Under the pieces are notes generated by a model. It was not told the DNA's origin. It saw only the letters and a list, made by a program, of their open reading frames with translations, and did no database searches. Below, piece by piece: positions 1-27,772 of a DNA stretch of 64,000 bases. How positions within the stretch are numbered: position 1 is the stretch's first letter; each line of letters opens with the position of its first letter. This DNA comes from Escherichia coli. GTDB taxonomy: Bacteria > Pseudomonadota > Gammaproteobacteria > Enterobacterales > Enterobacteriaceae. The stretch lies in assembly GCF_003334305.1 (NCBI RefSeq), contig NZ_QOWS01000003.1; one strand, given 5' to 3'. A program made the position numbers and the translations under genes.

Positions 1-1563
1 ACCCAGCAGGTCTTGCAGCATAAAGCGGCCAGAACGAGTACCCGCATCCAGCGCGGTCAGGATGAACAGGGCTTCGAACAGAATACCGAAGTGATACCAG
101 AAGCCCATGTCAGCCATCGGCAGCACTTTGTGGAACACGTGAGCGATACCTACCGCCAGCGTTGGCGCACCACCTGCACGGTTCAGGACAGAAGGCTCAC
201 CAATGTCTTTCGCGGTTTGCAGGATCTGCTCTGGCGAAATCACGAAGCCCCAGGAGCTGACGGTCGCTGCCGCGTGTGCGGTAACGTCTTTCAGCTGCGC
301 CATGATGATCGGCGCGTTCTCGCCACCCATTTCATGCAGGTTAGGCATGGTGATGCCAAGGCCAGCAGGCGGGGTATTCATCGCGAAGTAAAGACCCGGT
401 TCGATGATGGACGCTGCAACCAGCGCCATAATCGCCACGAAGGACTCCATCAGCATTGCGCCGTAGCCAATGAAACGCGCGTCGGTTTCGTTAGCCAGCA
501 GTTTTGGCGTCGTACCGGAAGAGATCAGCGCGTGGAAGCCAGATACCGCACCACAGGCGATGGTGATGAACAGGAACGGGAACAGAGCGCCTTTCCACAG
601 CGGGCCAGTACCGTCAATGTACTGGGTCGTCGCAGGCATTTTCAGTTCCGGGTTCAGCACCACGATACCCAGCGCCAGGCCGACGATAACGCCGATTTTC
701 AGGAAGGTTGCCAGATAGTCGCGCGGTGCGAGGATCAGCCACACCGGCAGCAGTGCGGAAACAAACGCATAGCCAATCAGCGCGAAGGTAATGGTGGTGT
801 CTTTAAAGGTCAGTGCCGGACCCCAGTACGGATCGTGAGCAATCACGCCACCGAAGTAGATAGAGGCAACCAGCAGCACGATACCAATGACAGAGACTTC
901 ACCCACACGCCCCGGACGGATAAAGCGCATGTAGATACCCATAAACAGCGCAATCGGTACGGTTGAGCAAACGGTGAAAACACCCCACGGGCTTTCGGCC
1001 AGGGCTTTAACCACAATCAGCGCCAGGACGGCAAGGATGATGATCATGATTAAGAAACAGCCAAACAGCGCGATAGTCCCCGGTACTGGTCCCATCTCTT
1101 CTTTGATCATCTCACCGAGAGATGCGCCGTTACGGCGAGAGGAGATAAACAGCACCATAAAGTCCTGTACCGCACCGGCCAGTACTACCCCCGCCAGCAG
1201 CCACAGCGTGCCAGGTAGGTAGCCCATCTGCGCGGCGAGAACCGGACCAACCAGCGGACCAGCACCGGCGATAGCGGCGAAGTGGTGACCAAACAACACG
1301 TAACGGTTGGTCGGAACATAGTTCAGACCGTCGTTGTTAATAACCGCAGGCGTCGCGCGCGTGGGGTCGAGTTTCATCACCTTCTGGGCGATGTACAGAC
1401 TGTAGTAGCGATAAGCCACCAGATACACCGACACAGAGGCGACCACGATCCACAGGGCGCTGACGTGCTCCCCCCGACGTAATGCAACTACCGCGAGGCA
1501 GAATGCACCGATGATTCCGAGAATCACCCAGGGTATGTGCTTGAATAGTTTTTTCGTATCCAT
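1..1563 (-). CDS. btsT: Pyruvate/peptide transporter BtsT (CstA family), N-terminal part; gene runs off the window start
   Basis: Minus-strand translation from ATG at 1563 reads MDTKKLFKHIPWVILGIIGAFCLAVV..., CstA-family membrane protein; open to window edge so absent from ORF track. The + ORF 13..966 is its antisense. Confidence 0.8.
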   Translation of the reverse strand, partial: MDTKKLFKHIPWVILGIIGAFCLAVVALRRGEHVSALWIVVASVSVYLVAYRYYSLYIAQKVMKLDPTRATPAVINNDGLNYVPTNRYVLFGHHFAAIAGAGPLVGPVLAAQMGYLPGTLWLLAGVVLAGAVQDFMVLFISSRRNGASLGEMIKEEMGPVPGTIALFGCFLIMIIILAVLALIVVKALAESPWGVFTVCSTVPIALFMGIYMRFIRPGRVGEVSVIGIVLLVASIYFGGVIAHDPYWGPALTFKDTTITFALIGYAFVSALLPVWLILAPRDYLATFLKIGVIVGLALGIVVLNPELKMPATTQYIDGTGPLWKGALFPFLFITIACGAVSGFHALISSGTTPKLLANETDARFIGYGAMLMESFVAIMALVAASIIEPGLYFAMNTPPAGLGITMPNLHEMGGENAPIIMAQLKDVTAHAAATVSSWGFVISPEQILQTAKDIGEPSVLNRAGGAPTLAVGIAHVFHKVLPMADMGFWYHFGILFEALFILTALDAGTRSGRFMLQDLLG

Positions 1564-1911
1564 AGTAAAACCTGGCATTTTACTCGTCGTCTTTTGGCTT
1601 ACAGGTGCGGCAGCTGCGTTCGTTCACCTCTGTCACTTACTGTTGCAAGCTCCCGGGGATTCACTCACTTGCTGCCTTCCTGCAAACCAAAATCCATAGA
1701 GTAATTTGTTAATCATAGGCCGAAGCCGTTCTAGGTTTGCGTTGCGTTTGAGGAGGTAAATTGACCGCTATCCTGCAGTGATGTTGCCAGAGATACGCGC
1801 GCGTAAAGTAAGGTAAATAACTGAGTGGTTATTTTAGGGATGTAAGCGGTCAGGAATGGCGGTGAGCGGTTGGGCAAGAATTATTCATCGGGTGGATATG
1901 TGATTGAGATC

Positions 1912-1949
1912 ACAATAAAAATGCCCCTTCGACGAATGCGTGAAGGGGC
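1912..1949 (-). terminator. Rho-independent terminator downstream of hpaC
   Basis: Stem gccccttc (1923-1930) / gaaggggc (1942-1949) followed on the minus strand by a T-run (plus aataaaaat 1911-1919). Confidence 0.6.
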
Positions 1950-1955
1950 TGGAGC

Positions 1956-2468
1956 TTAAATCGCAGCTTCCATTTCCAGCATCACCGGATGGAAACGGCG
2001 TTTAAAGTAAATAAGTCCGTGACCTTCTGCACTGAGGATGATGTTTTTAATCTCCACCAGATACACCAGATGTGTGCCAATCGCCTGCACATCGCGGATC
2101 TCTCCTTCAAGACTGGCCAGCGAACCTTTCAGCACCGGCTGCGCCAGCGGACCTTTTTGCCAGCATGAGAGGCTAAAACGCTCTTCCATCGCCATGCCTG
2201 TCATGCCCGCGAAGTGGCGTGCCATCAGTTCCTGCTCATGGTTGAGGACGTTGACGCACAACTTACCGTTGCCCTGAAAAACCGGGTTCATCGCACTGTT
2301 GGCGTTAATGCACACCATCAGCGACGGTGGTGTATCCGTGACCGAGCAGACGGCCGTTGCCGTAATTCCGCATTGTCCGGCGTCGCCCTCGGTGGTGATA
2401 ATATTTACCGCTGCCGACAGGCTGGCCATTGCGTCACGAAAGCGCAGGCGTTGTTCATCTAATTGCAT
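1956..2468 (-). CDS. hpaC: 4-hydroxyphenylacetate 3-monooxygenase, flavin reductase component
   Basis: 170 aa ORF; small flavin reductase adjacent to hpaB; recognised from translation and operon context. Confidence 0.85.
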   Translation of the reverse strand: MQLDEQRLRFRDAMASLSAAVNIITTEGDAGQCGITATAVCSVTDTPPSLMVCINANSAMNPVFQGNGKLCVNVLNHEQELMARHFAGMTGMAMEERFSLSCWQKGPLAQPVLKGSLASLEGEIRDVQAIGTHLVYLVEIKNIILSAEGHGLIYFKRRFHPVMLEMEAAI

Positions 2469-2485
2469 CTTAACCTCCTGCTGCG

Positions 2486-4048
2486 TTATTTCAGCAGCTT
2501 ATCCAGCATGTTGATATCGTCGTTGTTGTGCAGGTGCGGCACAGTCCAGCCGTTCTGGTCGTATTCCGACAGGCAGCGATCAACCATCGCCATCATCTTG
2601 TCCATATTGCCGGAGCTTTGTGCCTGGCGCAGACACTGCAGGCGAATCTCATCCTGGCTACCGGAGTAGTTGATTTCATACAGTTCGTGACGACCACCAA
2701 ACTCGCTGCCAATGGCATCCCACATCAGTTTGAGGATCTTGATGCGCTGGACGTGATCCATACCGTTCGAACCGCGCACATACTTCGCCAGATACTGGTC
2801 GATCTGCGGATTGTTCAGGTCACGGGCACTGGAAGGGAGATAGATCAGGCCACTGGTAACGTTGCGTTCGATAATGTTTTTGATCTTCGCGTAGGCCATT
2901 GGTGCCAGTACGCGATAGGTTTGCAGTGCGGCATGATCCGGTAAATAAGCCCCGTTGACCCACGGCGTCGCTTCAGAACACATCGAGTCACTCAATGCCC
3001 AGAAGGTGTTGCGCCACGCCACCACTTCACCGAGATCGGCCTGCACACCACGGAACTCCAGGGTGCCGGTACATTCGAGTGATTTTTTCAGCAGTGCCGT
3101 AATGAAGTCGAGTTTCACTGCCAGGCGCACACAGGCTTGCAGCGGATACATACGGGCGAAACCGCCTTCCATCGTCCAGCGACGGCAGCGATCAAAATCG
3201 CGGTAGATCAGCACGTTTTCCCATGGGATCAGCACGTTATCCATCACCAGAATCGCATCGTTCTCATCGAAGCGGCTGGAGAGCGGGTAGTCGTACGGCG
3301 AGCCGGTAGCACCCGCGACCATCTCATAAGAGGCGCGGGAGATTAATTTCACGCCATCGGCATCCATTGGCGCAACGAACATCAGTGCGAAGTCCGGGTT
3401 TTCGCCCATTACTTGTGCCGAGCCGAAGCCAATCATGTTGTAGTGAGTCAGCGCCGAGTTGGTGGCAACCACTTTCGCACCGCTAACGATAATCCCGGCG
3501 TCAGTCTCTTTTTCCAGCTTGATGTAAACGTCTTTCACTTTATCGGTCGGCAAATGACGATCGATCGGTGGGTTAACAATCGCGTGGTTAAAGTAGAGGC
3601 CAGTTTCCTGAATACGGGTGTACCAGTTACGGGCGTTCTGCTCGAACTGACCGTAAAAGCCCGGATTCGCGCCCAGTGCGCAACCGAAAGCAGCTTTGTA
3701 GTCTGGGGTACGGCCCATCCAGCCATAGCTCAGGCGTGACCATTCAGCGATGGCGTCGCGTTGCTGGCGCAGGTCGTCGGCACTTTTCGCCACGCGGAAG
3801 AATTTATGGGTATAGCCGCCGCTGCCGGTGTCGGTGTTCCAACACAGAGAGTCCTGCATCTCCGGTTTGTGCAGCGCGTCGTACAGTTGGGCAACAGACG
3901 CTGCCGCATTACGAAATGCCGGATGAGTGGTGACGTCTTTCACTCGCTCGCCATAGATATAGATCTCGCGACCATCCTGCAGGCTTTTCAGATACTCTTC
4001 CCCGGTGAAAGGACGTTGGGTACTGGCGCGGAAATCTTCTGGTTTCAT
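2486..4048 (-). CDS. hpaB: 4-hydroxyphenylacetate 3-monooxygenase, oxygenase component
   Basis: 520 aa ORF MKPEDFRASTQRPFTGEEYLKSL...; length and sequence typical of HpaB. Confidence 0.9.
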   Translation of the reverse strand: MKPEDFRASTQRPFTGEEYLKSLQDGREIYIYGERVKDVTTHPAFRNAAASVAQLYDALHKPEMQDSLCWNTDTGSGGYTHKFFRVAKSADDLRQQRDAIAEWSRLSYGWMGRTPDYKAAFGCALGANPGFYGQFEQNARNWYTRIQETGLYFNHAIVNPPIDRHLPTDKVKDVYIKLEKETDAGIIVSGAKVVATNSALTHYNMIGFGSAQVMGENPDFALMFVAPMDADGVKLISRASYEMVAGATGSPYDYPLSSRFDENDAILVMDNVLIPWENVLIYRDFDRCRRWTMEGGFARMYPLQACVRLAVKLDFITALLKKSLECTGTLEFRGVQADLGEVVAWRNTFWALSDSMCSEATPWVNGAYLPDHAALQTYRVLAPMAYAKIKNIIERNVTSGLIYLPSSARDLNNPQIDQYLAKYVRGSNGMDHVQRIKILKLMWDAIGSEFGGRHELYEINYSGSQDEIRLQCLRQAQSSGNMDKMMAMVDRCLSEYDQNGWTVPHLHNNDDINMLDKLLK

Positions 4049-4298
4049 GTCGACCTCTACAGTATTAATCGGAATACGATTGTTAATTTTGTGTGTTGTT
4101 TTTGTTATTTAATTGAAGCTTGCAGGGGCGATTACGGGAAGACACTTTTGGGACAATGGCTGGTACTTTTCAGGTCGGGTACGGTTTTGTGATCGAGGTC
4201 GCTTTTAGCGATTTTTAACGTTACTAAATCCCCTTGCTCCAGGCGGAGAAAGGGGAATAGCAGGTGGTGCCTGGTTTCCCGTTAAGGCTAAGGGATTT
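4049..4298 (-). promoter_or_regulatory. hpaBC promoter region (HpaA-activated per literature)
   Basis: 250 bp noncoding gap between hpaA stop and hpaB start; AT-rich stretch 4075-4110. Confidence 0.4.
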
Positions 4299-5189
4299 TC
4301 ACGTCACAGGTACTTTTTTGGCACGATAAGCACTGGGCGAGCAACCGACTAAGCGATTAAAAAAGCGCGCAAAATAAGCCGGATCTTTAAAACCGAGTTG
4401 CCAGGCAATATTGTTCACGGCGTTATCAGAAAACAGCAGCAGCCGCTTGGCTTCTCGTAGCTGCCTGTCGAAAATCAACCGTTTTGGCGGACGGTTGGCA
4501 AAGCGGCGGCAGATGTCCGTGAGTCGTGATTCGGTGATATGCAGTTCGTTAGCGTAATCCGGTACTGTCCAGTGCTGATGAAAATGGCTTTCAATCAGCA
4601 TATTAAAACGCTGGAACAGTTTTAATTCTCCGCGCATCCCGCTGGCGGCATGGTCGTCGAGTTTTGCATTACGCAGCAGTAGGGTGAACACTGCCTGTGC
4701 CAGTAGCGTCAGGGTGTGTTCCCGTCCAGGCAGTTGTTCCACCGATTCCCGCTCTATCAGTTGCCAATAGTGTTCCAGCGCCGCCAGTTCGTCGGGTTTA
4801 TCTGCCAGTGACAGGCAAATCCCCGGCAGGCCGAAGGTTTCCCGAGTGCCTGGATAAAGAACTTCCAGCAGGGGCCAGATCAGATCTTCCCGTACCGTCA
4901 ACACATGACCGTCGGCGTCAGACTCCGTAATAAACGCATGAGGTACTGACGGTGGCGTCAGGACAAACAGGGGCGCTTCCACCGAGTAGCGATGATCGTC
5001 AAGCTGTAGCTCAATCTGTCCGCTATTGAGGAAATGCATCTGAAAGTACTGTTCGTGGCGATGTGGCAGCATATGGCGGCCAAAAAAGGCCGCCATGCGG
5101 GCGAACGACTGATAATGCACATCGTCCGTGCCCAGGCTTTCATCGTACTCTTTGCTGATATCAATATTGGCAATCTGACGGTCACACAT
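4299..5189 (-). CDS. hpaA: AraC/XylS-family activator of hpaBC
   Basis: 296 aa ORF with C-terminal AraC-type HTH (…RLIFDRQLREAKRLLLFSDNAVNNIAWQLGFKDPAYFARFF…). Confidence 0.85.
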   Translation of the reverse strand: MCDRQIANIDISKEYDESLGTDDVHYQSFARMAAFFGRHMLPHRHEQYFQMHFLNSGQIELQLDDHRYSVEAPLFVLTPPSVPHAFITESDADGHVLTVREDLIWPLLEVLYPGTRETFGLPGICLSLADKPDELAALEHYWQLIERESVEQLPGREHTLTLLAQAVFTLLLRNAKLDDHAASGMRGELKLFQRFNMLIESHFHQHWTVPDYANELHITESRLTDICRRFANRPPKRLIFDRQLREAKRLLLFSDNAVNNIAWQLGFKDPAYFARFFNRLVGCSPSAYRAKKVPVT

Positions 5190-5198
5190 CGTCGTTCC

Positions 5199-6575
5199 TT
5201 ACGGGGTCGCTCGCGGACGGGAGGACTGCATTGGAATCGCCCAGATAATCCCCGCACCAATCACCAGCAGCGCGGCAACAAACCACAATCCACTGTTAAA
5301 GCTGCCGGTCAGATCTTTCAACCAGCCGATCATAAACGGACTTAACGCTGAACCAATGTTGCCAGTGGCGTTGATCACCGCAATACCGATCGCTCGTGCC
5401 CGCAGGCTGATGGACTGATCCGGTGTTGTCCAGAAAATCGCCATTGCGCTGAATGATCCGGTCGAAGCCATAATGATCCCCAGCATCTGGATCATGTTGT
5501 GATCAGTTGCCGAAGCCAGTAACCAACCTGCGGCAGCGAACAAATAAGGAAGGGCGGTGTGATGCCTTCGTTCCTGGCGGCGATCTGAGTGACGGCTCCA
5601 GTAGACCATCCCGAGAATGGTACAAATCTGCGGTACGGCGGCCAGCAGGCCGATGGTGATATTACTGCTGCCCTGATTAAAACTTTGCAGGATCTGCGGT
5701 GTCCAGATGCTGATCGCACTAAGTGTGTTGGTCAGGCAGAAATACGCCAGGGTATACATCATCACCACCGGAGTGAAGATCTCCCGCCACATACTGCGTT
5801 GTTGCATGGCGTGGTGGCTGATGGCTCCCTCTGGCTGAACCAGCGTCAGACGATCGTTATCCATCATCTCTTGCAGGCATTTTTTGTCTTCTTTCGTCAG
5901 CCACTTAGCTTTGTCCGGTGAGTCATCAAGCCAGAACCACACCATGACGCCGAGTAATACCGACGGGAAGCCTTCCAGCAAAAACAGCCACTGCCAGCCT
6001 TTTAATGCCATTACGCCATCCAGCGACAAAATGTAGCCGGAAACGAGCGATCCCAACGCTGTCGTTACCGGCATTGCAACCATAAACAAGGCGTTGGCAC
6101 GGGCGCGGAAATAGGCCGGAAACCAGAAGGTTAAATACAGCAGAATGCCAGGCAGAAAGCCGGCTTCGGTAATGCCAACCAGTATACGCAGTACGTACAA
6201 GCTGGTGGGGCCAGTGGCAAACATGGTGGCAGTAGAGGCGATGCCCCAGAGCACCATGATGGTGGCGATCCAGCGCCGCGCACCGACAATACTCAGCATA
6301 ATGTTGCTGGGAATGCCGAAGATGACATAAGCGGCATAGAACAGGGTGGTAGCGAGGCCAAACATGGTGGCGCTCAGACCGAGGTCGCGTCCCATCGTGA
6401 GTCCGGCAAAGCCGATGTTGATGCGATCAAGGAACGAGAAGATAAACAGCACGAACAGAAAGACGATCAGGCGGCGAAATAGCTTCTTAATAACCGCCTG
6501 TTGTCCGGCAGTCAGCGCTTTATGCTGATTCGCCGGATCGATACTCTCCGGTATGGCAGGTGAGGTGTCGCTCAT
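5199..6575 (-). CDS. hpaX: 4-hydroxyphenylacetate permease (MFS)
   Basis: MFS-type membrane protein; start set at MSDTSPA (ATG 6575) preceded by aggaag RBS; track ORF extends to 6635. Confidence 0.8.
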   Translation of the reverse strand: MSDTSPAIPESIDPANQHKALTAGQQAVIKKLFRRLIVFLFVLFIFSFLDRINIGFAGLTMGRDLGLSATMFGLATTLFYAAYVIFGIPSNIMLSIVGARRWIATIMVLWGIASTATMFATGPTSLYVLRILVGITEAGFLPGILLYLTFWFPAYFRARANALFMVAMPVTTALGSLVSGYILSLDGVMALKGWQWLFLLEGFPSVLLGVMVWFWLDDSPDKAKWLTKEDKKCLQEMMDNDRLTLVQPEGAISHHAMQQRSMWREIFTPVVMMYTLAYFCLTNTLSAISIWTPQILQSFNQGSSNITIGLLAAVPQICTILGMVYWSRHSDRRQERRHHTALPYLFAAAGWLLASATDHNMIQMLGIIMASTGSFSAMAIFWTTPDQSISLRARAIGIAVINATGNIGSALSPFMIGWLKDLTGSFNSGLWFVAALLVIGAGIIWAIPMQSSRPRATP

Positions 6576-6619
6576 TTTTCTTCCTCTAATGGGATTTTTG
6601 TAGGGTACGACAAGGTTTA

Positions 6620-6749
<130 letters not shown>

Positions 6750-6750
<1 letters not shown>

Positions 6751-7538
6751 TAATACACGCCGGGCTTCACGGCGGTGGCCTGCGCACCAAACCGTGCTGC
6801 CAGCGCTTCAGCGGCGCGGGCGAGCAGGGTGGTGTCAACGCCGACGGCGACAAACAGCGCGCCCAGTTCCAGATAGCGTTTTGCCAGTTGCTCATTGGCG
6901 ATCAGGATCCCCGGCGCTTTGCCCGCTTCGCGGATCTGCACGATCGCCTGCTCAATGGCGGCCTGTACTTCCGGGTGCTGCGGATTACCGGCATAACCCA
7001 TATCGGCGCTCAGATCCGCCGGGCCGATAAACACGCCGTCGACCCCTTCCACGTCCAGAATCTGCGGTAAGTTCTTCATTGCCTCACGCGTTTCGATCTG
7101 CACCAGCACGCACATTTGATCGTTGGCTTTTTGCAGGTAATCAGGAATGCGATTCCAGCGCGAGGCACGGGCCAGCGCACTGCCCACACCGCGAATACCG
7201 GCGGGGGGATAACGGGTGGCGCGTACCGCTTCACGGGCTTCGTCAGCGTTTTGAACCATCGGCACCAGTAAGGTTTGTGTGCCGACGTCCAGCAGTTGTT
7301 TGATTTGCACCGGATCGTTCCACGACGGACGTACTACCGGCTGGCTGGGGTAGGGCGCAATCGCCTGTAGCTGGGTGAGCACGGTTTGCACGTTATTCGG
7401 CGCGTGCTCACCGTCGATCAATAACCAGTCGAATCCTGCTCCGGCCAGTAACTCTGCGCTGTAGCTGCTACTTAGCCCCAGCCATAATCCGATCTGCGGG
7501 CGGCCTGCTTTCAGCGCCGCTTTAAAACTGTTTTCCAT
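6750..7538 (-). CDS. hpaI: 2,4-dihydroxyhept-2-ene-1,7-dioate aldolase
   Basis: Start placed at [21 protein letters not shown] (262 aa); track ORF is longer upstream, running through the hpaH 3' end. Confidence 0.8.
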
Positions 7539-7548
7539 CGTTCTCTCC

Positions 7549-8352
7549 TTAAACAAAGCGGCAGCTAATGGAGCCCATGTTGCCGTAATCGACGTGGAAG
7601 GTGTCGCCCTTACGCGCCGGAACCGGGCGGGTGAACGAACCGCCGAGAATGATTTGCCCGGCTTCCAGTTGTACGTCATACGGTGCGAGTTTGTTCGCCA
7701 GCCAGGCCACGCCGTTTGCCGGATGATTTAGCACGCCAGCGGCGACGCCGGTTTCTTCAATCACGCCATTGCGATACATCAGGGCGGAGATCCAACGCAG
7801 ATCCAGTTCGTCTGGTTTGATCGGACGACCGCCGAGGATCACTCCGGCGTTGGCGGCGTTATCAGAAATGGTGTCGAACACTTTGCGCGGGCGCTGGGTT
7901 TCCGGATCGATGTTGTGGCAGCGAGCGTCGATCAGCTCCAGCGCCGGGATCACGTAGTCCGTGGCGTTGTAGACGTCGAACAGCGTGCAGTTTGGCCCAC
8001 GCAGCGGTTTTGCCAGCACGAAAGCCAGCTCCACTTCAATGCGCGGCACGATAAAGCGATCGGTCGGGATATCGCTGCCATCGTGGAAGAACATGTCGTC
8101 CAGCAATGCACCGTAATCTGGTTCGCTGATTTGTGAGCTGGCCTGCATCGCTTTCGAGGTCAGACCGATTTTGTGGCCTTTCAGCGTACGGCCTTCGGCG
8201 ATTTTCAGTCGAACCCATTCACGCTGCACCGCGTAAGCGTCTTCGATGGTGATCTCCGGGTAATCCAGGGAGATCGCGCGGATCTGTTCGCGCTGTTTTT
8301 CTGCCTGATCCAGACGCTGGGCGATCAGGGTGTGGGTGTGTTTATCGAACAT
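7549..8352 (-). CDS. hpaH: 2-oxo-hept-3-ene-1,7-dioate hydratase
   Basis: Hydratase-family ORF; start placed at [14 protein letters not shown] (267 aa). Confidence 0.8.
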
Positions 8353-8419
8353 AGCGATATCCTGTGGCATTGCCGGATGCGGCTGCGCCTTATCATCCGG
8401 CCTGGAAGCTGGTGCAAAT

Positions 8420-8800
8420 TTATTTAAACAACGCGTGCACGTTGTTTTGTTTAAAATTCAGCGTCGGGTGCAGCTCTGCAATCTCAAATGAAAGCGCCAG
8501 GTAACGGCTCTCCATCAGTGAGGCGAAGTGCGTTTTAATCAGATCAAACAGCATTTCGCCCACTTCCTGACGGCTTTCCAGGCTGCGCCCGCTGCCGATT
8601 TTTAGCGTCATATGCACAAAGGCGTAATCGTGCTTGCCATCAGCCATTTGCCAGGTATCGATCCAGTGCGCCCGGCTACGTATTCCCCCAAGCGGAAAAA
8701 TCCCCGTCGCCGCCAGTGCAGTGTTAACACTGGCAAACAGCTCAGGTAAGCGGGCTTCTTGACGAATATTTTCAGTACATTCCACGATAAAGTGCGGCAT
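8420..8800 (-). CDS. hpaF: 5-carboxymethyl-2-hydroxymuconate isomerase
   Basis: 126 aa ORF in hpa operon order. Confidence 0.8.
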
Positions 8801-8809
8801 GGTGGTTCC

Positions 8810-9661
8810 TTACGCGGGAAGCGGGAAAACAGCGTTAACCTGACCGGTGCCAGAGCTTGGGAATAGCTCGGTGATAAACTCCACCTTGCCGTCGTATTTA
8901 TCCCAGCCGAGCATCCCCAGCAGCATCACCGTGTCGTGCATATTGCCTTCGCCGTAGCAGTAGTCGGCGTACTCCGGCAGCATATTGCAGAACTCTTTGA
9001 ACTGGCCTTCGCGCCACAACTTCACCACGCGCTCGTCCATCTGGCGGTCGAACTCGCGGGTGTAGCTGTTCATCCCTTCTTCTGCACGCTGATCGTCAAT
9101 AAAGCGGTGCGATAACGAACCGCTGGCAAGGACCGCCACGGTGCCGTCGTACTGTTCGATCGCTTTCAGAATCGCTTCGCCCAGCTTGCGGCTGTCGGCA
9201 AAATCGTGAACCGTGCAGAAAGCCGAAATGGAGACCACTTTGAAGCGCTTGTCTTCATTCATGTAGCGCATCGGTACCAGCGTGCCGTATTCCAGTTTCA
9301 GGCTGGGAATGTTGTGCGCTTTTGCCCGCACGCCGAGCTTTAAGGCTTCATCGGCAATTAGCTGCCCCAACTCCGGGTTGCCCTCGTAGTTGTAGGTCAT
9401 GTCACGAATAAAATGCGGCAGCTCGTTGCTGGTGTAGACGCCTTCAAAATGGTCTGCACAGTTGATGTGATAAGCACTGTTGACCAGCCAGTGGGTATCG
9501 AAAACGATAATGGTATCGACGCCCATTTCCCGGCAACGCTTGCTGATCTCTTTATGCCCGTCGATCGCACCCTGGCGGCAACCGTGGTTTTTCCCTGGCA
9601 GTTCAGAGAGATACATCGACGGTACGTGCGTGATCTTGGCGGCTAACGCTAACTTACCCAT
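8810..9661 (-). CDS. hpaD: 3,4-dihydroxyphenylacetate (homoprotocatechuate) 2,3-dioxygenase
   Basis: 283 aa extradiol dioxygenase-like ORF in hpa operon. Confidence 0.85.
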   Translation of the reverse strand: MGKLALAAKITHVPSMYLSELPGKNHGCRQGAIDGHKEISKRCREMGVDTIIVFDTHWLVNSAYHINCADHFEGVYTSNELPHFIRDMTYNYEGNPELGQLIADEALKLGVRAKAHNIPSLKLEYGTLVPMRYMNEDKRFKVVSISAFCTVHDFADSRKLGEAILKAIEQYDGTVAVLASGSLSHRFIDDQRAEEGMNSYTREFDRQMDERVVKLWREGQFKEFCNMLPEYADYCYGEGNMHDTVMLLGMLGWDKYDGKVEFITELFPSSGTGQVNAVFPLPA

Positions 9662-9662
9662 A

Positions 9663-11129
9663 TCAGACTCCCCATTTCGGAATTGGATGGTCGCCCATGG
9701 AAATGCAGACGTTCTTCATTTCCGCGAACACTTCGAAGCTGTACTCACCGCCTTCACGTCCGGTGCCGGAGGCTTTTACGCCGCCAAACGGCTGGCGCAG
9801 GTCGCGGACGTTCTGGGTGTTGACGAACACCATGCCTGCTTCAATGCCACGCGCCAGGCGTAACACTTTGCTGACATCCTGTGTCCAGATGTACGACGCG
9901 AGGCCGTACTCCACGTCGTTTGCCAGGCGTAAGCCTTCGGCTTCGTCTTTAAACGGCAGCAGGCAGGCGACCGGCCCGAAAATCTCTTCCTGGGCGACGC
10001 GCATACGGTTATCAACGTCTGCCAGCACCGTTGGGCGCAGGAAGTTGCCGCCTTTCAGGTGTGCAGGCAGGTCAGACGGTTTATCCGGGCCGCCCGCCAG
10101 CAGGGTTGCGCCTTCTTCAATGCCGAGACGGATATAGCCGGAGACTTTTTCCCAGTGTTGCTGGCTGATAAGCGCCCCAACCTGGGTATTTGGATCGTTC
10201 GGATCGCCCACGCGCAGACGGTTGGCGCGTTCGGCAAAGCGTTTAACGAATTCCGGGTAGATGCTCTGCTGAATAAAGATGCGCGAACCGGCGGTGCAGC
10301 GTTCGCCGTTGATCGAGAAGATGGTGAACAGGGCGGCGTCCAGCGCGCGTTCAATATCAGCATCTTCAAAAATCAGCACCGGCGATTTACCGCCCAGTTC
10401 CATGGAGTATTTTTTCAGCCCGGCGTTTTTCATGATGTTGCGCCCGGTGGCGGTACCGCCGGTGAACGACACGGCACGCACGTCATGATGACGAACCAGC
10501 GCATCCCCTGCGGTTGCGCCGTAGCCCTGTACCACGTTCAGCACGCCTGCCGGAATACCGGCTTCCAGCGCCAGCTCACCCAGGCGGTCAGCGGTCAGCG
10601 GGGAGAGTTCCGACATCTTCAGCACCGCGGTATTGCCCAGCGCCAGACACGGCGCGACCTTCCAGGTGGCGGTCATAAACGGCACGTTCCACGGCGATAC
10701 CAGCGCACAAACGCCCACCGGCTGCACCAGCGTGTAGTTGAGCATCTTGTCGTCAACCGGATAGGTCTTGCCGTTCATCTGCTGGCAGACTTCCGCGAAA
10801 AATTCAAAGTTGTGAGAAGCGCGTGGGATCAACACATTTTTGGTCTGATGGATCGGCAGGCCCGTGTCCGCGGTTTCCATCGCGGCGATCTCCGGTACGT
10901 TCTGGTCGATCAGATCGCCCAGACGGCGCATCAGGCGCGCGCGCTCTTTCATCGGCAGATTGGCCCATTTCGGGAACGCCTCTTTCGCTGCCGCTACCGC
11001 CTGATTGATCTCCGCTTCACCGCCGGAGGCCACATCCGCCAGCACTTCACCCGTTGCCGGATTGGTAGTCTGGAAGTAGTCGTTACCTGCAACATTTTTA
11101 CCGTTGATCCAATGATTTACTTTTTTCAT
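9663..11129 (-). CDS. hpaE: 5-carboxymethyl-2-hydroxymuconate semialdehyde dehydrogenase
   Basis: 488 aa aldehyde dehydrogenase family ORF (…ELGGKSP… motif). Confidence 0.85.
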   Translation of the reverse strand: MKKVNHWINGKNVAGNDYFQTTNPATGEVLADVASGGEAEINQAVAAAKEAFPKWANLPMKERARLMRRLGDLIDQNVPEIAAMETADTGLPIHQTKNVLIPRASHNFEFFAEVCQQMNGKTYPVDDKMLNYTLVQPVGVCALVSPWNVPFMTATWKVAPCLALGNTAVLKMSELSPLTADRLGELALEAGIPAGVLNVVQGYGATAGDALVRHHDVRAVSFTGGTATGRNIMKNAGLKKYSMELGGKSPVLIFEDADIERALDAALFTIFSINGERCTAGSRIFIQQSIYPEFVKRFAERANRLRVGDPNDPNTQVGALISQQHWEKVSGYIRLGIEEGATLLAGGPDKPSDLPAHLKGGNFLRPTVLADVDNRMRVAQEEIFGPVACLLPFKDEAEGLRLANDVEYGLASYIWTQDVSKVLRLARGIEAGMVFVNTQNVRDLRQPFGGVKASGTGREGGEYSFEVFAEMKNVCISMGDHPIPKWGV

Positions 11130-12415
11130 TTCGCTGTTTCCTCACTCACAATTCGGTTCACCAGGCGGCCCACGCCTTCTACTTCCACCACCACTTCATC
11201 GCCAGGCACCACGTCAGATAAGCCTTTTGGTGTGCCGGTGGCGATCATGTCGCCCGGATTCAGGGTCATAAATTCGCTTAAGTAGGCGATCAGGAAGGGC
11301 ACGCTGAAGATCAGATCGGCGGTGGTGCCTTGCTGGCGTAACTCGCCGTTGACGAAGGTGCGAAGGGTCAGATTATGCGGGTCCGGGATCGCCTCTTTCG
11401 GCACGATGGTTGAAAGCATCGGCGTCAGTCCGTCGCGGCTTTTGACCCGCAGGTTAGGGCGGTAGTAGTTTTCCAGATAGTCGCGAATGGCGTAGTCGTT
11501 ACACACGGTGTAGCCCGCGACATAATCCATGGCATCGGCTTCGCTGACGTTACGCGCCTGTTTGCCAATAACTACCACCAGCTCCGCTTCATAGTGCATG
11601 TATTCAATATTGTTTGGACGCACGGAGGTCTGGTTATCGCCAGTGAGGGTATTTGGCGCTTTCAGGAACACCAGCGGTTCTTCCGGTGGCTTAAATTCCA
11701 GTTCGCTGGCGTGGTCGGCGTAGTTCAGGCCGAGGGCAAACAGCGTGCCGTGCGGGTGTGGCTGCGTTGGGAAGCTCTTGCGCGTGGTCACTTCACGTTC
11801 GTCCACTACCGGATTTTCCAGCGGCGGGAAACCTTCTGCGAGAACACGAACGCGATCGCCTGGCTGTATTTCCACGCGCGCCTGTGGCGTGCCGAGCAGA
11901 ATGGCATCGCCTGGATTCAGTGTGGCAAATTCGCTCAGGGCGCTCAGCAACTGCGCGGCGTTACGTTGTAAATCGGCGGTATTCCAGTGATCGGCAGGAC
12001 GCCCGTTGATCTCGGTATAGATGGTCAGATTATCGACATTGCTGAGAGCCACGGTTTCGCCAATGGGGCAGAATCCATCACGACATTTTGCTTTGATTGC
12101 CGGGCGGTAAAAGCTCTCTTCCGGCAGGCTGACGTCGTTAGCCAGCGCATATCCGGCGATGTACTCTGCCGCATCTTCTTCACGTACTTTCGTCGCCGTT
12201 TTTCCCACAATCAGCGCAACAGTCGCACCGCTCAGTACCTTTTCACCCTGTGGAAAGGGAATCGGTTCACCGCAACCAATCACCGTATTGCGCGGTTTAA
12301 TAAACCAGACCGCAGTTTTAGGCGGGGCTTTGTAGGGGGATTGCTGGAACGCTTCCTGCCATGCATCAAGTTGGCTGCGATGGTTCAACGCTACGGCGAA
12401 GATAGTGCCTTTCAT
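11126..12415 (-). CDS. hpaG: Bifunctional OPET decarboxylase / HHDD isomerase (duplicated FAH-fold)
   Basis: 429 aa with two internally similar halves; 4-bp overlap with hpaE start. Confidence 0.8.
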   Translation of the reverse strand: MKGTIFAVALNHRSQLDAWQEAFQQSPYKAPPKTAVWFIKPRNTVIGCGEPIPFPQGEKVLSGATVALIVGKTATKVREEDAAEYIAGYALANDVSLPEESFYRPAIKAKCRDGFCPIGETVALSNVDNLTIYTEINGRPADHWNTADLQRNAAQLLSALSEFATLNPGDAILLGTPQARVEIQPGDRVRVLAEGFPPLENPVVDEREVTTRKSFPTQPHPHGTLFALGLNYADHASELEFKPPEEPLVFLKAPNTLTGDNQTSVRPNNIEYMHYEAELVVVIGKQARNVSEADAMDYVAGYTVCNDYAIRDYLENYYRPNLRVKSRDGLTPMLSTIVPKEAIPDPHNLTLRTFVNGELRQQGTTADLIFSVPFLIAYLSEFMTLNPGDMIATGTPKGLSDVVPGDEVVVEVEGVGRLVNRIVSEETAK

Positions 12416-12421
12416 TACCAC

Positions 12422-12686
12422 TCCTCGGATTCGATCATTTTAATCATTAATATGTTAATGATTACTTTTATTCCCGATTGCGTAGTTTGGCAAAAGTAAG
12501 TGATGTAAATGTGATCTAATTAACAAACTATTTACATTTAAAGATAATAAAATATTAAATATCAGCAAGTTAACAAAACATGCTCAATTTTGATAAAATG
12601 AAGAATTGCAGGGGCAGCGCAGTCCCGGTAACGTGATGATTAACTGTTTCTATATTAATGATTTTGAATTTTTCAGGGGAAAGATA
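12422..12686. promoter_or_regulatory. Divergent hpaG / hpaR promoter-operator region
   Basis: 265 bp AT-rich gap between divergently oriented hpaG and hpaR. Confidence 0.5.
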
Positions 12687-13133
12687 ATGCACGACTCTCT
12701 AACCATTGCGTTGCTCCAGGCGCGAGAAGCGGCGATGAGTTATTTTCGCCCAATCGTTAAACGGCATAATTTGACTGAGCAACAGTGGCGCATCGTGCGT
12801 ATTCTGGCGGAAAGCCCATCAATGGATTTTCACGATCTGGCGTATCGCGCCTGCATTTTGCGCCCAAGCCTGACCGGGATCCTTACGCGGATGGAACGCG
12901 ACGGTTTAGTGTTGCGATTAAAGCCGATCAATGATCAGCGGAAGCTCTATATCTCGCTAACCAAAGAGGGGCAGGCGCTGTATAACCGCGCTCAGACACA
13001 GATTGAAGAAGCCTATCGGCAGATTGAAGCTCAGTTTACTGCCGAGAAAATGCAACAGTTAACCCATCTGTTAGAGGAATTTATTGCTCTGGGCAATTCC
13101 CGACAAGAAGACATCCCGGGCGATAATGAATAA
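12687..13133 (+). CDS. hpaR: MarR-family repressor of the hpa meta-cleavage operon
   Basis: Start at ATG 12687 (MHDSLTIALLQ…) with agggga RBS; 148 aa; MarR-like winged helix. Confidence 0.8.
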   Translation: MHDSLTIALLQAREAAMSYFRPIVKRHNLTEQQWRIVRILAESPSMDFHDLAYRACILRPSLTGILTRMERDGLVLRLKPINDQRKLYISLTKEGQALYNRAQTQIEEAYRQIEAQFTAEKMQQLTHLLEEFIALGNSRQEDIPGDNE

Positions 13134-13251
13134 CTTTTTAGTATCTGATAACCAGCGCCTGGTTTTTCCATGGATGGCGGGTTACACCTTTTCATAAAGT
13201 TTTTGCTTTCCAGGCCGAAAATCTTGCATCGGTCCACAGGAAAGAGAAACC

Positions 13252-14916
13252 ATGTTAAAACGTATCAAGATCGTGACCAGCTTACTGCTGGTTTTGGCTG
13301 TTTTTGGCCTTTTACAACTGACATCAGGCGGTCTGTTCTTTAATGCCTTAAAGAATGACAAAGAAAATTTCACTGTTTTACAAACCATTCGCCAGCAGCA
13401 ATCCACGCTGAATGGCAGCTGGGTCGCGTTGTTGCAGACGCGTAACACCCTCAACCGCGCGGGTATCCGCTACATGATGGATCAGAATAATATTGGTAGC
13501 GGTTCAACCGTTGCTGAGCTGATGCAGAGTGCCAGTATTTCGCTGAAACAGGCGGAAAAAAACTGGGCGGATTACGAAGCGTTGCCGCGTGACCCGCGTC
13601 AGAGCACCGCCGCAGCGGCAGAGATCAAACGTAATTACGATATTTATCACAATGCGCTGGCGGAGCTGATCCAACTATTAGGGGCAGGCAAAATCAACGA
13701 GTTCTTTGATCAGCCGACCCAGGGATATCAGGACGGTTTCGAGAAGCAGTATGTGGCTTACATGGAGCAAAACGATCGGCTCTATGATATCGCCGTCAGC
13801 GATAACAATGCCTCCTACAGCCAGGCTATGTGGATTCTGGTGGGCGTGATGATCGTCGTACTGGCGGTCATCTTCGCCGTCTGGTTCGGTATTAAAGCCT
13901 CGCTGGTAGCGCCAATGAATCGCCTGATTGACAGCATTCGTCATATTGCAGGCGGCGATCTGGTGAAACCGATTGAGGTGGATGGCTCTAATGAGATGGG
14001 GCAACTGGCAGAGAGTTTGCGCCATATGCAGGGAGAGCTGATGCGTACCGTCGGTGATGTGCGCAACGGGGCCAATGCCATCTATAGCGGTGCCAGCGAA
14101 ATCGCCACCGGCAATAACGATCTCTCTTCGCGCACCGAGCAACAGGCCGCTTCGCTGGAAGAGACGGCAGCCAGCATGGAGCAACTGACCGCAACGGTGA
14201 AGCAGAACGCCGAAAATGCGCGCCAGGCCAGCCATCTGGCGTTAAGTGCTTCTGAAACGGCGCAACGCGGCGGCAAAGTGGTGGATAACGTGGTGCAGAC
14301 TATGCGCGATATCTCCACCAGTTCGCAGAAAATCGCCGATATTATCAGCGTAATTGACGGCATTGCCTTCCAGACCAATATTCTGGCTTTGAACGCGGCG
14401 GTTGAGGCTGCGCGTGCGGGTGAGCAAGGGCGCGGTTTTGCGGTGGTTGCGGGAGAAGTGCGTAATCTGGCCCAGCGTAGCGCCCAGGCGGCTCGTGAAA
14501 TTAAAAGCCTGATTGAAGACTCGGTGGGGAAAGTGGATGTTGGCTCTACGCTGGTCGAAAGCGCCGGGGAAACAATGGCGGAGATTGTCAGTGCTGTGAC
14601 CCGCGTGACGGACATTATGGGCGAAATAGCTTCTGCTTCTGATGAGCAGAGCCGTGGTATCGATCAGGTTGGCTTAGCGGTTGCTGAGATGGACCGGGTA
14701 ACTCAACAGAACGCCGCGCTGGTGGAAGAATCTGCCGCCGCCGCCGCCGCGCTGGAAGAGCAGGCCAGTCGCCTGACCGAAGCTGTGGCAGTGTTCCGGA
14801 TTCAGCAACAGCAGCAACAGCAGCGTGAAACATCGGCTGTGGTAAAAACCGTGACGCCAGCTACGCCGCGTAAAATGGCAGTGGCAGATAGCGGGGAGAA
14901 CTGGGAAACGTTTTAA
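13252..14916 (+). CDS. tsr: Methyl-accepting chemotaxis protein I (serine chemoreceptor)
   Basis: 554 aa; HAMP and methyl-accepting domains; C-terminal NWETF pentapeptide; seven-Gln run at 14803-14823. Confidence 0.95.
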
Positions 14917-14929
14917 TCGCCATAAAAAT

Positions 14930-14955
14930 GCCCGATAAGCAAAATGTTATCGGGC
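14930..14955. terminator. Hairpin terminator between convergent tsr and lgoT
   Basis: Stem gcccgataa (14930-14938) / ttatcgggc (14947-14955); T-rich on the minus side. Confidence 0.5.
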
Positions 14956-14964
14956 ATAGGGAGA

Positions 14965-16326
14965 TTAATCTTTACGTGGGTCGTTGATCGGCTGACGAAC
15001 CAGGAAGATGTACGCCAGTGCCCCCGCTGCGGTGACGCAACCGCAGATGATTAGTGCCAGACGGAATGAGTGGGTGGTATCAACAATAAAACCAGTAATG
15101 ATCGGCGCAAAAGAGGCGCAGATGAAGCTGGCAAAGTTCTGGATACTGCCCACCGACGCAGTCATGCGAGAAGCAACTGCGACGTGGATCAAGCCCCAGC
15201 AGGATGTTCCGGCAAAGTGAATACAGAACAGTGCCATGCCAATCAGCAGAACCGCTGTCATGGATGTTGTCGCTTGCGGTACGACCAGCGTAAAGGCGGC
15301 AGAACAGAACATCCCGGCAATAATGCAGATCTTACGGCTTTTAATCGGAGCCATTCCCCCTTTGACCAGCCAGTCAGTAACGTAACCGTTGACCAGCATC
15401 CCGGCAGCCCCAAACAGGAAAGGGATAGCCGCCATCAACCCTGTGCTTTTTAAATCCAGGTTATAGGCTGTTTGCAGGTAACCAGGAAGCCAGGCCAGAT
15501 ACAGCCACGCAGTGTAGTTGATGCCACTGAATCCGAGCATCATTCCCCACATTGTGCGGTTACGGAACAGGCTGCGCCATTCGGCAAAACTGAGCGGATC
15601 TCGGCGGGCATTGACGCTACCTGCATTGAGATAAGCTTGTTCAACGGCAGTCAGTTCTACGTGCTCGCGGTTGCGATAGAGCATATACCAGCCAATGGCG
15701 AGAAAAATCCCCAGCACACCAATGGTAATAAACATCCCACGCCAGCCCATCACCAGCATCATCGCCGCCAGAATCGGTGGGCTTACGGCAACGCCAATGG
15801 TAGAAGCTGCGTTGAAGAAGCCCATCGGGCGTCCGCGCTCTTTGATGTTGAACCAGTCGTTAATGACTTTTACGCCACATGGGTTCATCGGCGCTTCACC
15901 AATCCCCATACCGATACGCACCAACACGAACTGCGTAAAGCTGTGCACCATGCCAGACATGGCCTGGAACAGTGACCAGAAGAACATCCCCAGTCCCAGC
16001 ATCAGGCGTGGGCCTTTACGATCCAATAGTGGGCCGCAAGGAAGTTGCGCAATCCCGTAAGCGAGTGAAAACACGGAGAGCAAAGCGCCGATTTCGGTGG
16101 CACTTAATCCCAATTCTTCACGAATCGTTAAATTTGCTACCGACAGCGAACTGCGGTCGAGATAATTGATTACCGCCGCAAAAAATAATAACAACATGGC
16201 GGTGGTTTGAATGCGTTTAATTCGGGTACTGCGTTGAACTAATCCATCTGGTGGCACGGGAATATCTGCCGACGAAGATGGAGTAAATGAAGAACGCGGA
16301 TCGAGGGTGATATTTTCTTTTTCCAC
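14965..16326 (-). CDS. lgoT: L-galactonate:H+ symporter (MFS)
   Basis: 453 aa MFS transporter; synteny with lgoR and lgoD (yjiZ). Confidence 0.8.
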   Translation of the reverse strand: MEKENITLDPRSSFTPSSSADIPVPPDGLVQRSTRIKRIQTTAMLLLFFAAVINYLDRSSLSVANLTIREELGLSATEIGALLSVFSLAYGIAQLPCGPLLDRKGPRLMLGLGMFFWSLFQAMSGMVHSFTQFVLVRIGMGIGEAPMNPCGVKVINDWFNIKERGRPMGFFNAASTIGVAVSPPILAAMMLVMGWRGMFITIGVLGIFLAIGWYMLYRNREHVELTAVEQAYLNAGSVNARRDPLSFAEWRSLFRNRTMWGMMLGFSGINYTAWLYLAWLPGYLQTAYNLDLKSTGLMAAIPFLFGAAGMLVNGYVTDWLVKGGMAPIKSRKICIIAGMFCSAAFTLVVPQATTSMTAVLLIGMALFCIHFAGTSCWGLIHVAVASRMTASVGSIQNFASFICASFAPIITGFIVDTTHSFRLALIICGCVTAAGALAYIFLVRQPINDPRKD

Positions 16327-16540
16327 GCCGGACTCCTGTATTTATAATTTTAATTGTTTACGTAATTGTGAATTACGCAAGGTTGACATTAACGGCAGGT
16401 TAAAGTTTTAGGACTTTACTACCGCTCACAAAAAAATTTTTAGTCGACTGATTGTGAGCATAGGTAAGCGGGAATTTCCCGGTATTTATCTTTTGATAAA
16501 ACCGTGCACCCGCTAATAGTTTGCTGTTTTTAATCCGTAC

Positions 16541-17455
16541 TTAATGAGCATAACGCGTGTTCTCATTAATGGATCGAATCATTGATTGTTTAGCTGAATT
16601 CAAATGGTTACGGAGCGCAAGGGTGGCATCAAGGTCACTGCGGCAAATCAGAGCGCTGAGAATGGTCATATGCTCATCGACGGCAATGATATTGCGCTGT
16701 TTAAGATCGCTTTCGTCCCATTGATAGTGAAAATGAAAGATGACTGAGATGATCTCAAGCGATTGATCAAAAAAGATATTGTCGGCAGCTGAAAGCAGTA
16801 AGGAGTGAAAATCTCTGTCAAGTTGCGAGAACATGCGAAAGCTATTGCCGATGTTGTCACGCAGTAGCCGATGACGTTCGAGCATGGTTTTCGCCTGCAG
16901 CCAGCGGGGATCATGATCAGGCAGGTTGAGAAAGTGCTGAAGTGAATGTGTTTCGAGCATTTCGCGTAGCTCAAACAGCTGCTCGGCGTAGGATTGATCG
17001 AATTGCTTCATGCTCCACTGGCCGCGTTTTTCGCTTTGAATAAGATTATAACGGCCGAATTTTAAAAGATATTCTCTTACAACCACCGGGCTGACACCCG
17101 CGGCCCGAGCCAGTTGCAGTTCAGAAAAAGTTTCCCCAGGGCGTAACTGACGCTGGTTTATCATCGTGAAAAAAGCCTGCTCAAACACTTTGTTTTGTTC
17201 ACTCATTGAAGCGGTAGTACAGGCGAAACCGTCATCATGGTCAGGTTTACGCGCAATAACATAGTCGTTTCCAACCTGCGTTAAGACGCCGCATTCGCGT
17301 AAGTGGCTGAGAATATGACGCACTGTTGTGCGGCTGATGTTGTACATTTCCGCCAGCGCACTTTGCGATGGAAGTGGGGAAGGGATATGACCCCGCGCCA
17401 TATCATCAATGACCTGGTTAATCACATTGTGGCGTAAATTTTGTGAACGACTCAT
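16541..17455 (-). CDS. lgoR: GntR-family transcriptional regulator of L-galactonate utilisation
   Basis: 304 aa; N-terminal GntR-type HTH (…LAEMYNISRTTVRHIL…) (yjjM). Confidence 0.8.
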   Translation of the reverse strand: MSRSQNLRHNVINQVIDDMARGHIPSPLPSQSALAEMYNISRTTVRHILSHLRECGVLTQVGNDYVIARKPDHDDGFACTTASMSEQNKVFEQAFFTMINQRQLRPGETFSELQLARAAGVSPVVVREYLLKFGRYNLIQSEKRGQWSMKQFDQSYAEQLFELREMLETHSLQHFLNLPDHDPRWLQAKTMLERHRLLRDNIGNSFRMFSQLDRDFHSLLLSAADNIFFDQSLEIISVIFHFHYQWDESDLKQRNIIAVDEHMTILSALICRSDLDATLALRNHLNSAKQSMIRSINENTRYAH

Positions 17456-27685: not shown

Positions 27686-27772
27686 TGGTGCGAGGGGGGG
27701 GACTTGAACCCCCACGTCCGTAAGGACACTAACACCTGAAGCTAGCGCGTCTACCAATTCCGCCACCTTCGC
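27686..27772 (-). tRNA. leuQ: tRNA-Leu (anticodon CAG), single copy
   Basis: 87 nt; minus strand reads GCGAAGGTGGCGGAATTGGTAGACGCGCTAGCTTCAGGTGTTAGTGTCCTTACGGACGTGGGGGTTCAAGTCCCCCCCCTCGCACCA. Confidence 0.95.

Follow-up and report, generated by a model that had tools for sequence, protein, structure and literature searches.

An intact hpa cluster between btsT and tsr in Escherichia coli: probably an ancestral arrangement rather than an inserted island

Escherichia coli B, C and W grow on 4-hydroxyphenylacetate (4-HPA), whereas K-12 does not (PMC7201708, PMC3446290). A 64,000-nucleotide stretch of E. coli DNA (assembly GCF_003334305.1, contig NZ_QOWS01000003.1), referred to in its full length as the window, carries the hpa genes for the breakdown of this compound between the core genes btsT and tsr. 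The question raised by this locus is whether the cluster entered an originally empty spacer in some E. coli lineages, or whether it represents the older state of the site, from which K-12 departed. Taken together, the evidence makes it very likely that the window holds the canonical, intact hpa regulon at its ancestral site and not an inserted mobile island. The cluster itself is not novel, since it has already been described in E. coli W, B and C and has been characterized since the 1990s. The additions made here are modest and consist of sequence-level support for the loss in K-12, the exact limits of the variable segment, and a four-allele polymorphism within the species. The cluster decides whether E. 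coli can use 4-HPA and 3-hydroxyphenylacetate (3-HPA), two compounds formed in the gut from tyrosine and plant phenolics, and the monooxygenase HpaBC is widely used in biocatalysis.

Gene content and closest known clusters

Over its first 15 kb, the window matches E. coli H15 at 100% identity, so that the RefSeq annotation of that strain is transferable. Eleven hpa genes occupy positions 1564–13251 in the order hpaC-B-A-X-I-H-F-D-E-G on the minus strand, followed by the divergent hpaR on the plus strand, with btsT and tsr on the two sides (Table 1). This is the order reported in the preliminary description of the locus, and the H15 annotation, the program-made list of open reading frames (ORFs) and the NCBIfam models all agree with it. 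No hpa gene is flagged as a pseudogene in the H15 annotation, and the ORF list is concordant. In a profile search, all eleven Hpa translations match their own NCBIfam equivalog model end to end with scores above the curated cut-off, and they contain no internal stops, frameshifts or premature stops. Neither of the two faults against which the preliminary description had measured itself, Hpa proteins without a database match and frameshifted catabolic genes, was therefore found. Judged from its sequence, the segment can be taken with near certainty, as regards both identity and predicted function, to be a complete and intact canonical E. coli hpa regulon for the aerobic breakdown of 4- and 3-HPA.

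The closest known system is the hpaRGEDFHIXABC cluster of E. coli W (GenBank Z37980.2), for which PMC7180172 cites Prieto et al. (1996) and Galan et al. (2003). The W genome (NC_017635) has the same eleven genes in the same order, orientation and position between btsT and tsr, as had been claimed earlier, and it shares a 174-bp hpaX–hpaI spacer containing repetitive extragenic palindromic (REP) units. HpaC, HpaB, HpaA, HpaH, HpaE and HpaR are identical in the two strains, and HpaX, HpaI, HpaD and HpaG differ by one residue each; nucleotide identity is 98.9% over 1–8394 and 97.8% over 8421–17000. The main difference lies in hpaF, where 70 of 381 nucleotides and 20 of 126 residues are changed. 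In addition, the hpaH–hpaF spacer of W seems to have one REP more. For E. coli B (BL21(DE3) and REL606) and E. coli C, in which the genes are named hpc, an 11-gene cluster and the corresponding phenotype are documented (PMC7201708, PMC3446290). Residue 379 of HpaB is arginine in the window translation, as in BL21(DE3), while REL606, with Cys379, uses 4-HPA but not 3-HPA (PMC7201708). Growth on both 4-HPA and 3-HPA would be expected of the present strain, because its Hpa proteins are identical to, or one residue away from, those of E. coli W and its HpaB has Arg379.

HB101 shares the window-type HpaF under an identical protein accession and differs in having a 3'-truncated hpaB directly followed by IS1 (locus L009, 3904–6983). 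Between this IS1 point and a truncated rpn gene, hpaC, btsT, yjiX and yjiA are not annotated. The arrangement looks like an IS1-associated deletion and provides an example of a partial hpa cluster.

Boundaries, alleles and gene order in other genera

K-12 MG1655 lacks hpa, as the preliminary description had stated, and its btsT–tsr spacer measures only 377 bp. When this spacer is aligned to the window, as had been proposed there, three features stand out. The window has an extra element at 1579–1704. Next to it lies a shared btsT control region, which is a nearly exact match at 1710–1846 and of lower similarity onward to a CRP-type site at 1899–1914. On the right side, all alleles converge at 13194/13195, the first base of the sigma-28-type promoter of tsr. 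The variable segment is thus delimited by the convergence points at the CRP-type site and the tsr promoter and comprises 1915–13193 (11,279 bp). The earlier estimates, which had placed the left boundary within 1564–1955 and the right one within 13134–13251, were correct and are narrowed to about 1915 and 13193/13194. At the position of the CRP core, K-12 reads TGTGATTCATATCACA, unlike the TGTGATTGAGATCACA of the window, and the latter occurs as the same sequence in the btsT–hpaC spacer of six other genera. The literature searched yielded no paper on the btsT/tsr junctions.

Signs of mobility are missing from the segment. No integrase or transposase gene was found in the cluster by the ORF list or the H15 annotation, no tRNA gene lies at it, and a repeat search detected no direct repeat pairing its two ends, which bears out the earlier remark on the lack of such features. 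There is also no compositional break, the GC content being 0.51–0.60 across the cluster compared with 0.57 in btsT and 0.56 in tsr.

The comparison with other genera started from a scan for HpaI in one genome per bacterial species, which gave at least 80 loci that were searched by tblastn with the window proteins; the following counts are those among the matches listed. In at least 20 loci, hpaC adjoins a btsT orthologue (95–96% amino acid identity), and in at least 11 loci hpaR adjoins tsr (84–95%, with 84–87% in several genera). Both flanks are found in at least nine loci, belonging to Pseudocitrobacter, Enterobacter, Lelliottia and one Citrobacter genome. Klebsiella and Raoultella have the btsT side only, and the tsr side is seen in Leclercia and in a divergent Escherichia (locus L010, 91.7% nucleotide identity). 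In Enterobacter, Lelliottia, Leclercia, the Citrobacter genome and L010, hpaR directly abuts the conserved tsr promoter. Flanks and cluster are alike in their nucleotide identity to the window, with 85–88% for btsT, mostly 76–90% for the hpa genes and 77–80% for tsr. Enterobacter, Lelliottia, Pseudocitrobacter, the Klebsiella oxytoca group, Raoultella and Citrobacter therefore resemble the window in gene order, CRP core and tsr promoter. They differ from it in the stretch from the CRP site to hpaC, where each genus has repeats or a terminator of its own, in lacking the repeat element of the btsT leader and, in some cases, in additional genes that separate hpaC from btsT or hpaR from tsr. Salmonella enterica has homologous hpa enzymes (84–98% amino acid identity) and a different layout, with hpaBC beside hpaR and inverted (locus L034) and no btsT or tsr within the fetched flanks.

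Within E. coli, the slot between btsT and tsr holds one of four fillings, which together account for about 99% of 5426 complete genomes. The K-12-like empty spacer (A0, with at least 80% of the query covered) is present in 2752 genomes. The hpa cluster (A1) is present in about 38%, namely in 2020 genomes if at least 80% of the cluster is required and in 2072 if hpaF is taken as the marker. A 5.8-kb segment (A2) with five genes, for an amino-acid deaminase, an N-acyl-D-amino-acid deacylase, RidA, a sodium:solute symporter and a MurR/RpiR regulator, occurs in 194 genomes. The fourth filling (A3), typical of O157:H7 and O55:H7 and present in 363 genomes, is AT-rich, measures about 0.8 kb and includes a 180-aa orphan ORF. 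Examples of A2 were seen in strain CUVET19-1704 (L003, 4184–8183, and L005, 18831–24986), and examples of A3 at L007 (14225–15005) and, in O157:H7, at L090 (669–1211). The orphan ORF of A3 is broken by a stop in strain GF66.1; it has no NCBIfam match, and its best Pfam hit is insignificant (E 0.11). Outside the shared flanks, no similarity was detected between the fillers of K-12 (about 85 bp long) and A3, or between either of them and hpa or A2. The CRP-type site at the left end and TAAAGTTT at the right end are common to all four alleles, which differ in everything that lies between. A1 and A2 are the same through the first arm of the hpaBC terminator hairpin, whose stem also closes the A2 cargo; both stem arms are common to them and the loop is different, which places the A1/A2 breakpoint in the loop. 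The A2 version of this hairpin folds at −23.3 kcal/mol. Ordinary homologous recombination in the core genes on either side has probably carried the alleles through the species. With at least four alleles at the locus, the polymorphism is usable as a typing marker, although the cluster marks strain lineage more loosely than had been proposed.

The cluster is not uniform among the strains that carry it. The window and W types of hpaF differ at about 18% of nucleotides, whereas the neighbouring genes are less than 2% apart, and the divergent patch in W spans about 7800–8820. Among the complete genomes, 1083 have hpaF of the window type, at 95% identity or more, compared with 987 for the W type (80–90%). 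The former has 96% nucleotide identity to L010, the latter 93% to Pseudocitrobacter, a distribution which suggests that hpaF is a patch of inter-genus recombination present at high frequency. A related pattern extends to hpaH, hpaD and hpaE (7549–8352 and 8810–11129), which have 93–97% nucleotide identity between E. coli and Pseudocitrobacter (L011 and L013), compared with 85–90% for other genera, whereas hpaF, hpaR, hpaA, hpaX and hpaC have 80–83% in the same comparison. This mosaic reflects past exchange between E. coli and Pseudocitrobacter. A recent transfer of the whole cluster from Pseudocitrobacter, considered in view of the 99% amino acid identity of HpaI, was rejected, as overall nucleotide identity is only about 86% and that of btsT 87%; the patches of high identity remain.

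Acquired or ancestral

The order btsT-hpa-tsr recurs in several genera, with the cluster about as diverged as its flanks. For this reason, the arrangement is likely to be the ancestral enterobacterial one, and the hpa-negative alleles of E. coli are likely to have been derived from it by deletion or replacement. K-12 most likely lost its hpa cluster, in line with a hypothesis of loss already proposed and quoted in PMC7201708. On the same grounds, the end points at 1915 and 13193 are better read as limits of loss or replacement in hpa-negative strains than as insertion junctions. The preliminary description was right about long residence, which it even understated; its word island, by suggesting an insertion, does not fit a gene order conserved across genera. 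Several points weigh against so simple a history. The deletion left no readable scar in the K-12 filler, and the ancestral state is reconstructed from one representative genome per species among the loci sampled. No E. albertii or E. fergusonii locus is among the matches listed, where the representatives may simply be hpa-negative, and Salmonella, Kluyvera and Serratia carry hpa with neither btsT nor tsr detected within the fetched flanks. The 93–97% identity of hpaH, hpaD and hpaE to Pseudocitrobacter implies some inter-genus exchange, so that strictly vertical descent is too simple. The expected growth on 4-HPA, for its part, is derived from near-identity to characterized strains. A cluster that is present yet silent or non-functional in this strain is nevertheless highly improbable. 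Strain-specific REP or ERIC (enterobacterial repetitive intergenic consensus) content could in principle alter regulation. The reading frames are free of frameshifts and stops, all eleven proteins are full length, ten of them differ from the functional W proteins by one residue at most, and the promoter regions are about 98–99% identical to those of W.

Horizontal acquisition of hpa as a genomic island, inserted in an originally empty btsT–tsr spacer of some E. coli lineages, would account for the presence of the cluster in only about 38% of complete genomes, for its absence from K-12 and for the alternative cargos in the same slot. It is nonetheless very unlikely, given the lack of an integrase, transposase, tRNA, flanking direct repeat or compositional break, the conserved gene order with similar divergence of flanks and cluster, and a left-junction sequence which in hpa-positive E. 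coli matches that of other genera and in K-12 does not. None of the three marks of a genomic island, namely mobility or attachment signatures, atypical composition and absence from the syntenic site in relatives, was found. A variant in which hpa was lost in the ancestor of E. coli and came back to some lineages, through homologous recombination of a btsT-hpa-tsr segment from a related enterobacterium at the syntenic site, draws on the W-type hpaF, which is carried by about half of the hpa-positive E. coli and is closer to Pseudocitrobacter (93%) than to the window and L010 type (about 80%), and on the unusual similarity of hpaH, hpaD and hpaE to Pseudocitrobacter. This, too, is very unlikely, as the cluster differs by just 1–2% between distant E. 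coli strains and has 94–96% identity per gene to the divergent Escherichia L010, which is roughly the level expected between close Escherichia species. Moreover, no possible donor genus stays close throughout the segment, with btsT, hpaC, hpaA, hpaX and hpaR at 80–88%. A bolder view would make the spacer a true cassette-exchange site, with four unrelated fillings between the same two regulatory elements, break points set by the terminator hairpin as a joint for recombination and not by selection alone, and the inter-genus dimorphism of hpaF held at about 50:50; this has a small chance of being correct. The hpaF dimorphism and the repeat in the btsT leader are in any case small leads on recombination and regulation.

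Control regions, repeats and further observations

The catabolic pathway is established for E. coli W and C and is assigned here from near-identity. HpaX would take up the substrate, which HpaBC would hydroxylate to 3,4-dihydroxyphenylacetate. HpaD would then open the ring by the homoprotocatechuate meta-cleavage route, and HpaE, HpaF, HpaG, HpaH and HpaI would convert the ring-opened product to pyruvate and succinate semialdehyde. As for control, the AraC-type HpaA is predicted to activate hpaBC, and the MarR-type HpaR to repress hpaGEDFHI and its own gene through AT-rich palindromes in the divergent promoter region. This agrees with the described organization into the operons hpaBC and hpaGEDFHI plus hpaA, hpaR and hpaX, in which HpaA activates hpaBC and HpaR represses the meta operon (PMC7180172). 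The coordinates of all features are collected in Table 1.

Table 1. Genes, control elements and repeats of the btsT–tsr region, in window coordinates. W, E. coli W; CHMS, 5-carboxymethyl-2-hydroxymuconate semialdehyde; MFS, major facilitator superfamily; ERIC, enterobacterial repetitive intergenic consensus; IRU, intergenic repeat unit.
Feature	Position	Strand	Basis or remark
btsT (yjiY), pyruvate/H+ symporter, 5' part, left flanking core gene	1..1563	-	H15 RefSeq annotation
ERIC/IRU-type repeat, about 126 bp, in btsT leader about 15 nt upstream of ATG	1579..1704	.	gap in K-12 alignment
Conserved btsT control region	1710..1914	-	common to K-12, A2 and A3
hpaBC intrinsic terminator, between CRP site and hpaC	1923..1949	-	fold −18 kcal/mol, z −4.1, then AUUUUUAUU
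hpaC, flavin reductase component of 4-HPA 3-monooxygenase	1956..2468	-	NF012030, 385.6 bits (cut-off 315), residues 1–170/170; identical to W
hpaB, oxygenase component	2486..4048	-	TIGR02310, 1109.6 bits (cut-off 885); identical to W
hpaA–hpaB spacer with putative HpaA-dependent hpaBC promoter	4049..4298	-	inferred from E. coli W literature; about 98.5% identical to W
hpaA, AraC-family activator of hpaBC	4299..5189	-	TIGR02297, 390.3 bits (cut-off 274.65); identical to W
hpaX, MFS 4-HPA permease	5199..6575	-	TIGR02332, 892.3 bits (cut-off 615.4); 1 residue from W
Three REP units, two direct, third inverted against second	6621..6749	.	sequence; folds at −67 kcal/mol
hpaI, 4-hydroxy-2-oxoheptanedioate aldolase	6750..7538	-	TIGR02311, 433.8 bits (cut-off 368.8); 1 residue from W
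hpaH, 2-oxo-hept-4-ene-1,7-dioate hydratase	7549..8352	-	TIGR02312, 464.7 bits (cut-off 351.5); identical to W
Single degenerate REP, hpaH–hpaF spacer	8371..8404	.	spacers compared by eye; W appears to have two
hpaF, 5-carboxymethyl-2-hydroxymuconate isomerase, 'Escherichia-type' allele	8420..8800	-	NF011605, 263.5 bits (cut-off 215)
hpaD, 3,4-dihydroxyphenylacetate 2,3-dioxygenase	8810..9661	-	TIGR02298, 546.6 bits (cut-off 315.95); 1 residue from W
hpaE, CHMS dehydrogenase	9663..11129	-	TIGR02299, 739.3 bits (cut-off 638.35); identical to W
hpaG, bifunctional isomerase/decarboxylase	11126..12415	-	NF011750, 979.2 bits (cut-off 811); 1 residue from W
Divergent hpaG/hpaR control region	12416..12686	.	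sequence; sigma-70-like hexamers on both strands
hpaR, MarR-family repressor of meta operon	12687..13133	+	TIGR02337, 201.1 bits (cut-off 121.2); identical to W
tsr sigma-28-type promoter, TAAAGTTT-N11-GCCGAAAA	13195..13221	+	single match in window, 0 expected by chance
tsr, serine chemoreceptor, right flanking core gene	13252..14916	+	H15 RefSeq annotation

In the divergent hpaG/hpaR region, a near-perfect palindrome, TAATCATTAATATGTTAATGATTA, lies at 12441–12464 with the core TTAA-N4-TTAA, a motif unique in the window, and a related half-site pair is found at 12636–12663, about 200 bp away. The palindrome is a candidate HpaR operator, as its form corresponds to the TTAA-N4-TTAA given for HpaR sites and described as similar to that of E. 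coli W (PMC7180172). At the other end of the cluster, a simple terminator scan missed the hairpin behind hpaC, probably because its loop limit was too short, and direct folding found it. The CRP-type core upstream of btsT is the sole perfect TGTGA-N6-TCACA in the 64-kb window. The same control region contains, at 1843–1850 and 1863–1870, what we take to be BtsR-like boxes. The gene itself, as yjiY, is among the top-ranked predicted CRP targets (PMC1794230). An Rfam scan of window positions 1–16000 returned no known RNA family. On the tsr side, the promoter was recognized by the sigma-28 consensus, which is established knowledge.

The REP stretch between hpaX and hpaI, already noted in the preliminary description as a REP/BIME (bacterial interspersed mosaic element) cluster, contains the exact REP consensus at 6672–6705, with five further copies in the window against none expected by chance, and an inverted pair at 6692–6705 and 6720–6733 detected by the repeat search. 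An E. coli genome has matches to the stretch as a whole at about 21 places in the median. The hallmarks of REP elements are all present, namely the consensus, an imperfect palindrome, dispersed extragenic copies, and direct and inverted pairs. Copy number varies among strains, the hpaX–hpaI spacer of 174 bp in the window and W being 117–123 bp in strain 144 and HB101. The REPs of the window appear as gaps in alignments to most other genera, a pattern consistent with accumulation during residence in Escherichia.

The element in the btsT leader belongs, by its features, to the ERIC/IRU type: it is an imperfect palindrome of about 126 bp, extragenic in a transcribed region and present in a handful of copies. 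Its 126-bp copies are dispersed at a median of eight places per genome with 75–82% identity, and it folds as a long imperfect hairpin at −54.8 kcal/mol (z −5.8). It is presumably also akin to the published ERIC core. At the btsT-leader site it is found in 2063 genomes, essentially the number of hpa-positive ones, and it is missing in K-12, in the other genera and in those A0, A2 and A3 examples that were read. The element thus tracks the hpa allele, as judged from these counts rather than from a per-genome table, and it could affect the stability or translation of the btsT mRNA.

Some further observations concern the neighbourhood and the rest of the window. E. coli W has a penicillin G acylase gene (L091, 1674–4214) about 3.4 kb left of btsT, with yjiS and yjiA on its two sides, and in K-12 mrr is immediately left of yjiA. 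Farther along the window, one tRNA-Leu(CAG) gene at 27686–27772 stands in place of the three tandem copies of H15 and CUVET19-1704, and the window is 236 bp shorter than H15 here; this may be a real reduction in copy number or a collapse in assembly, and it shows the window to be distinct from H15. By transfer of the H15 annotation, a helix-turn-helix gene remnant with an internal stop lies beside lplA (about 42886–43149), and a truncated NadS-family fragment follows nadR (about 48678–48773) in otherwise core genome. Two REP copies are located near the latter, at 48774–48807 and 48890–48923.

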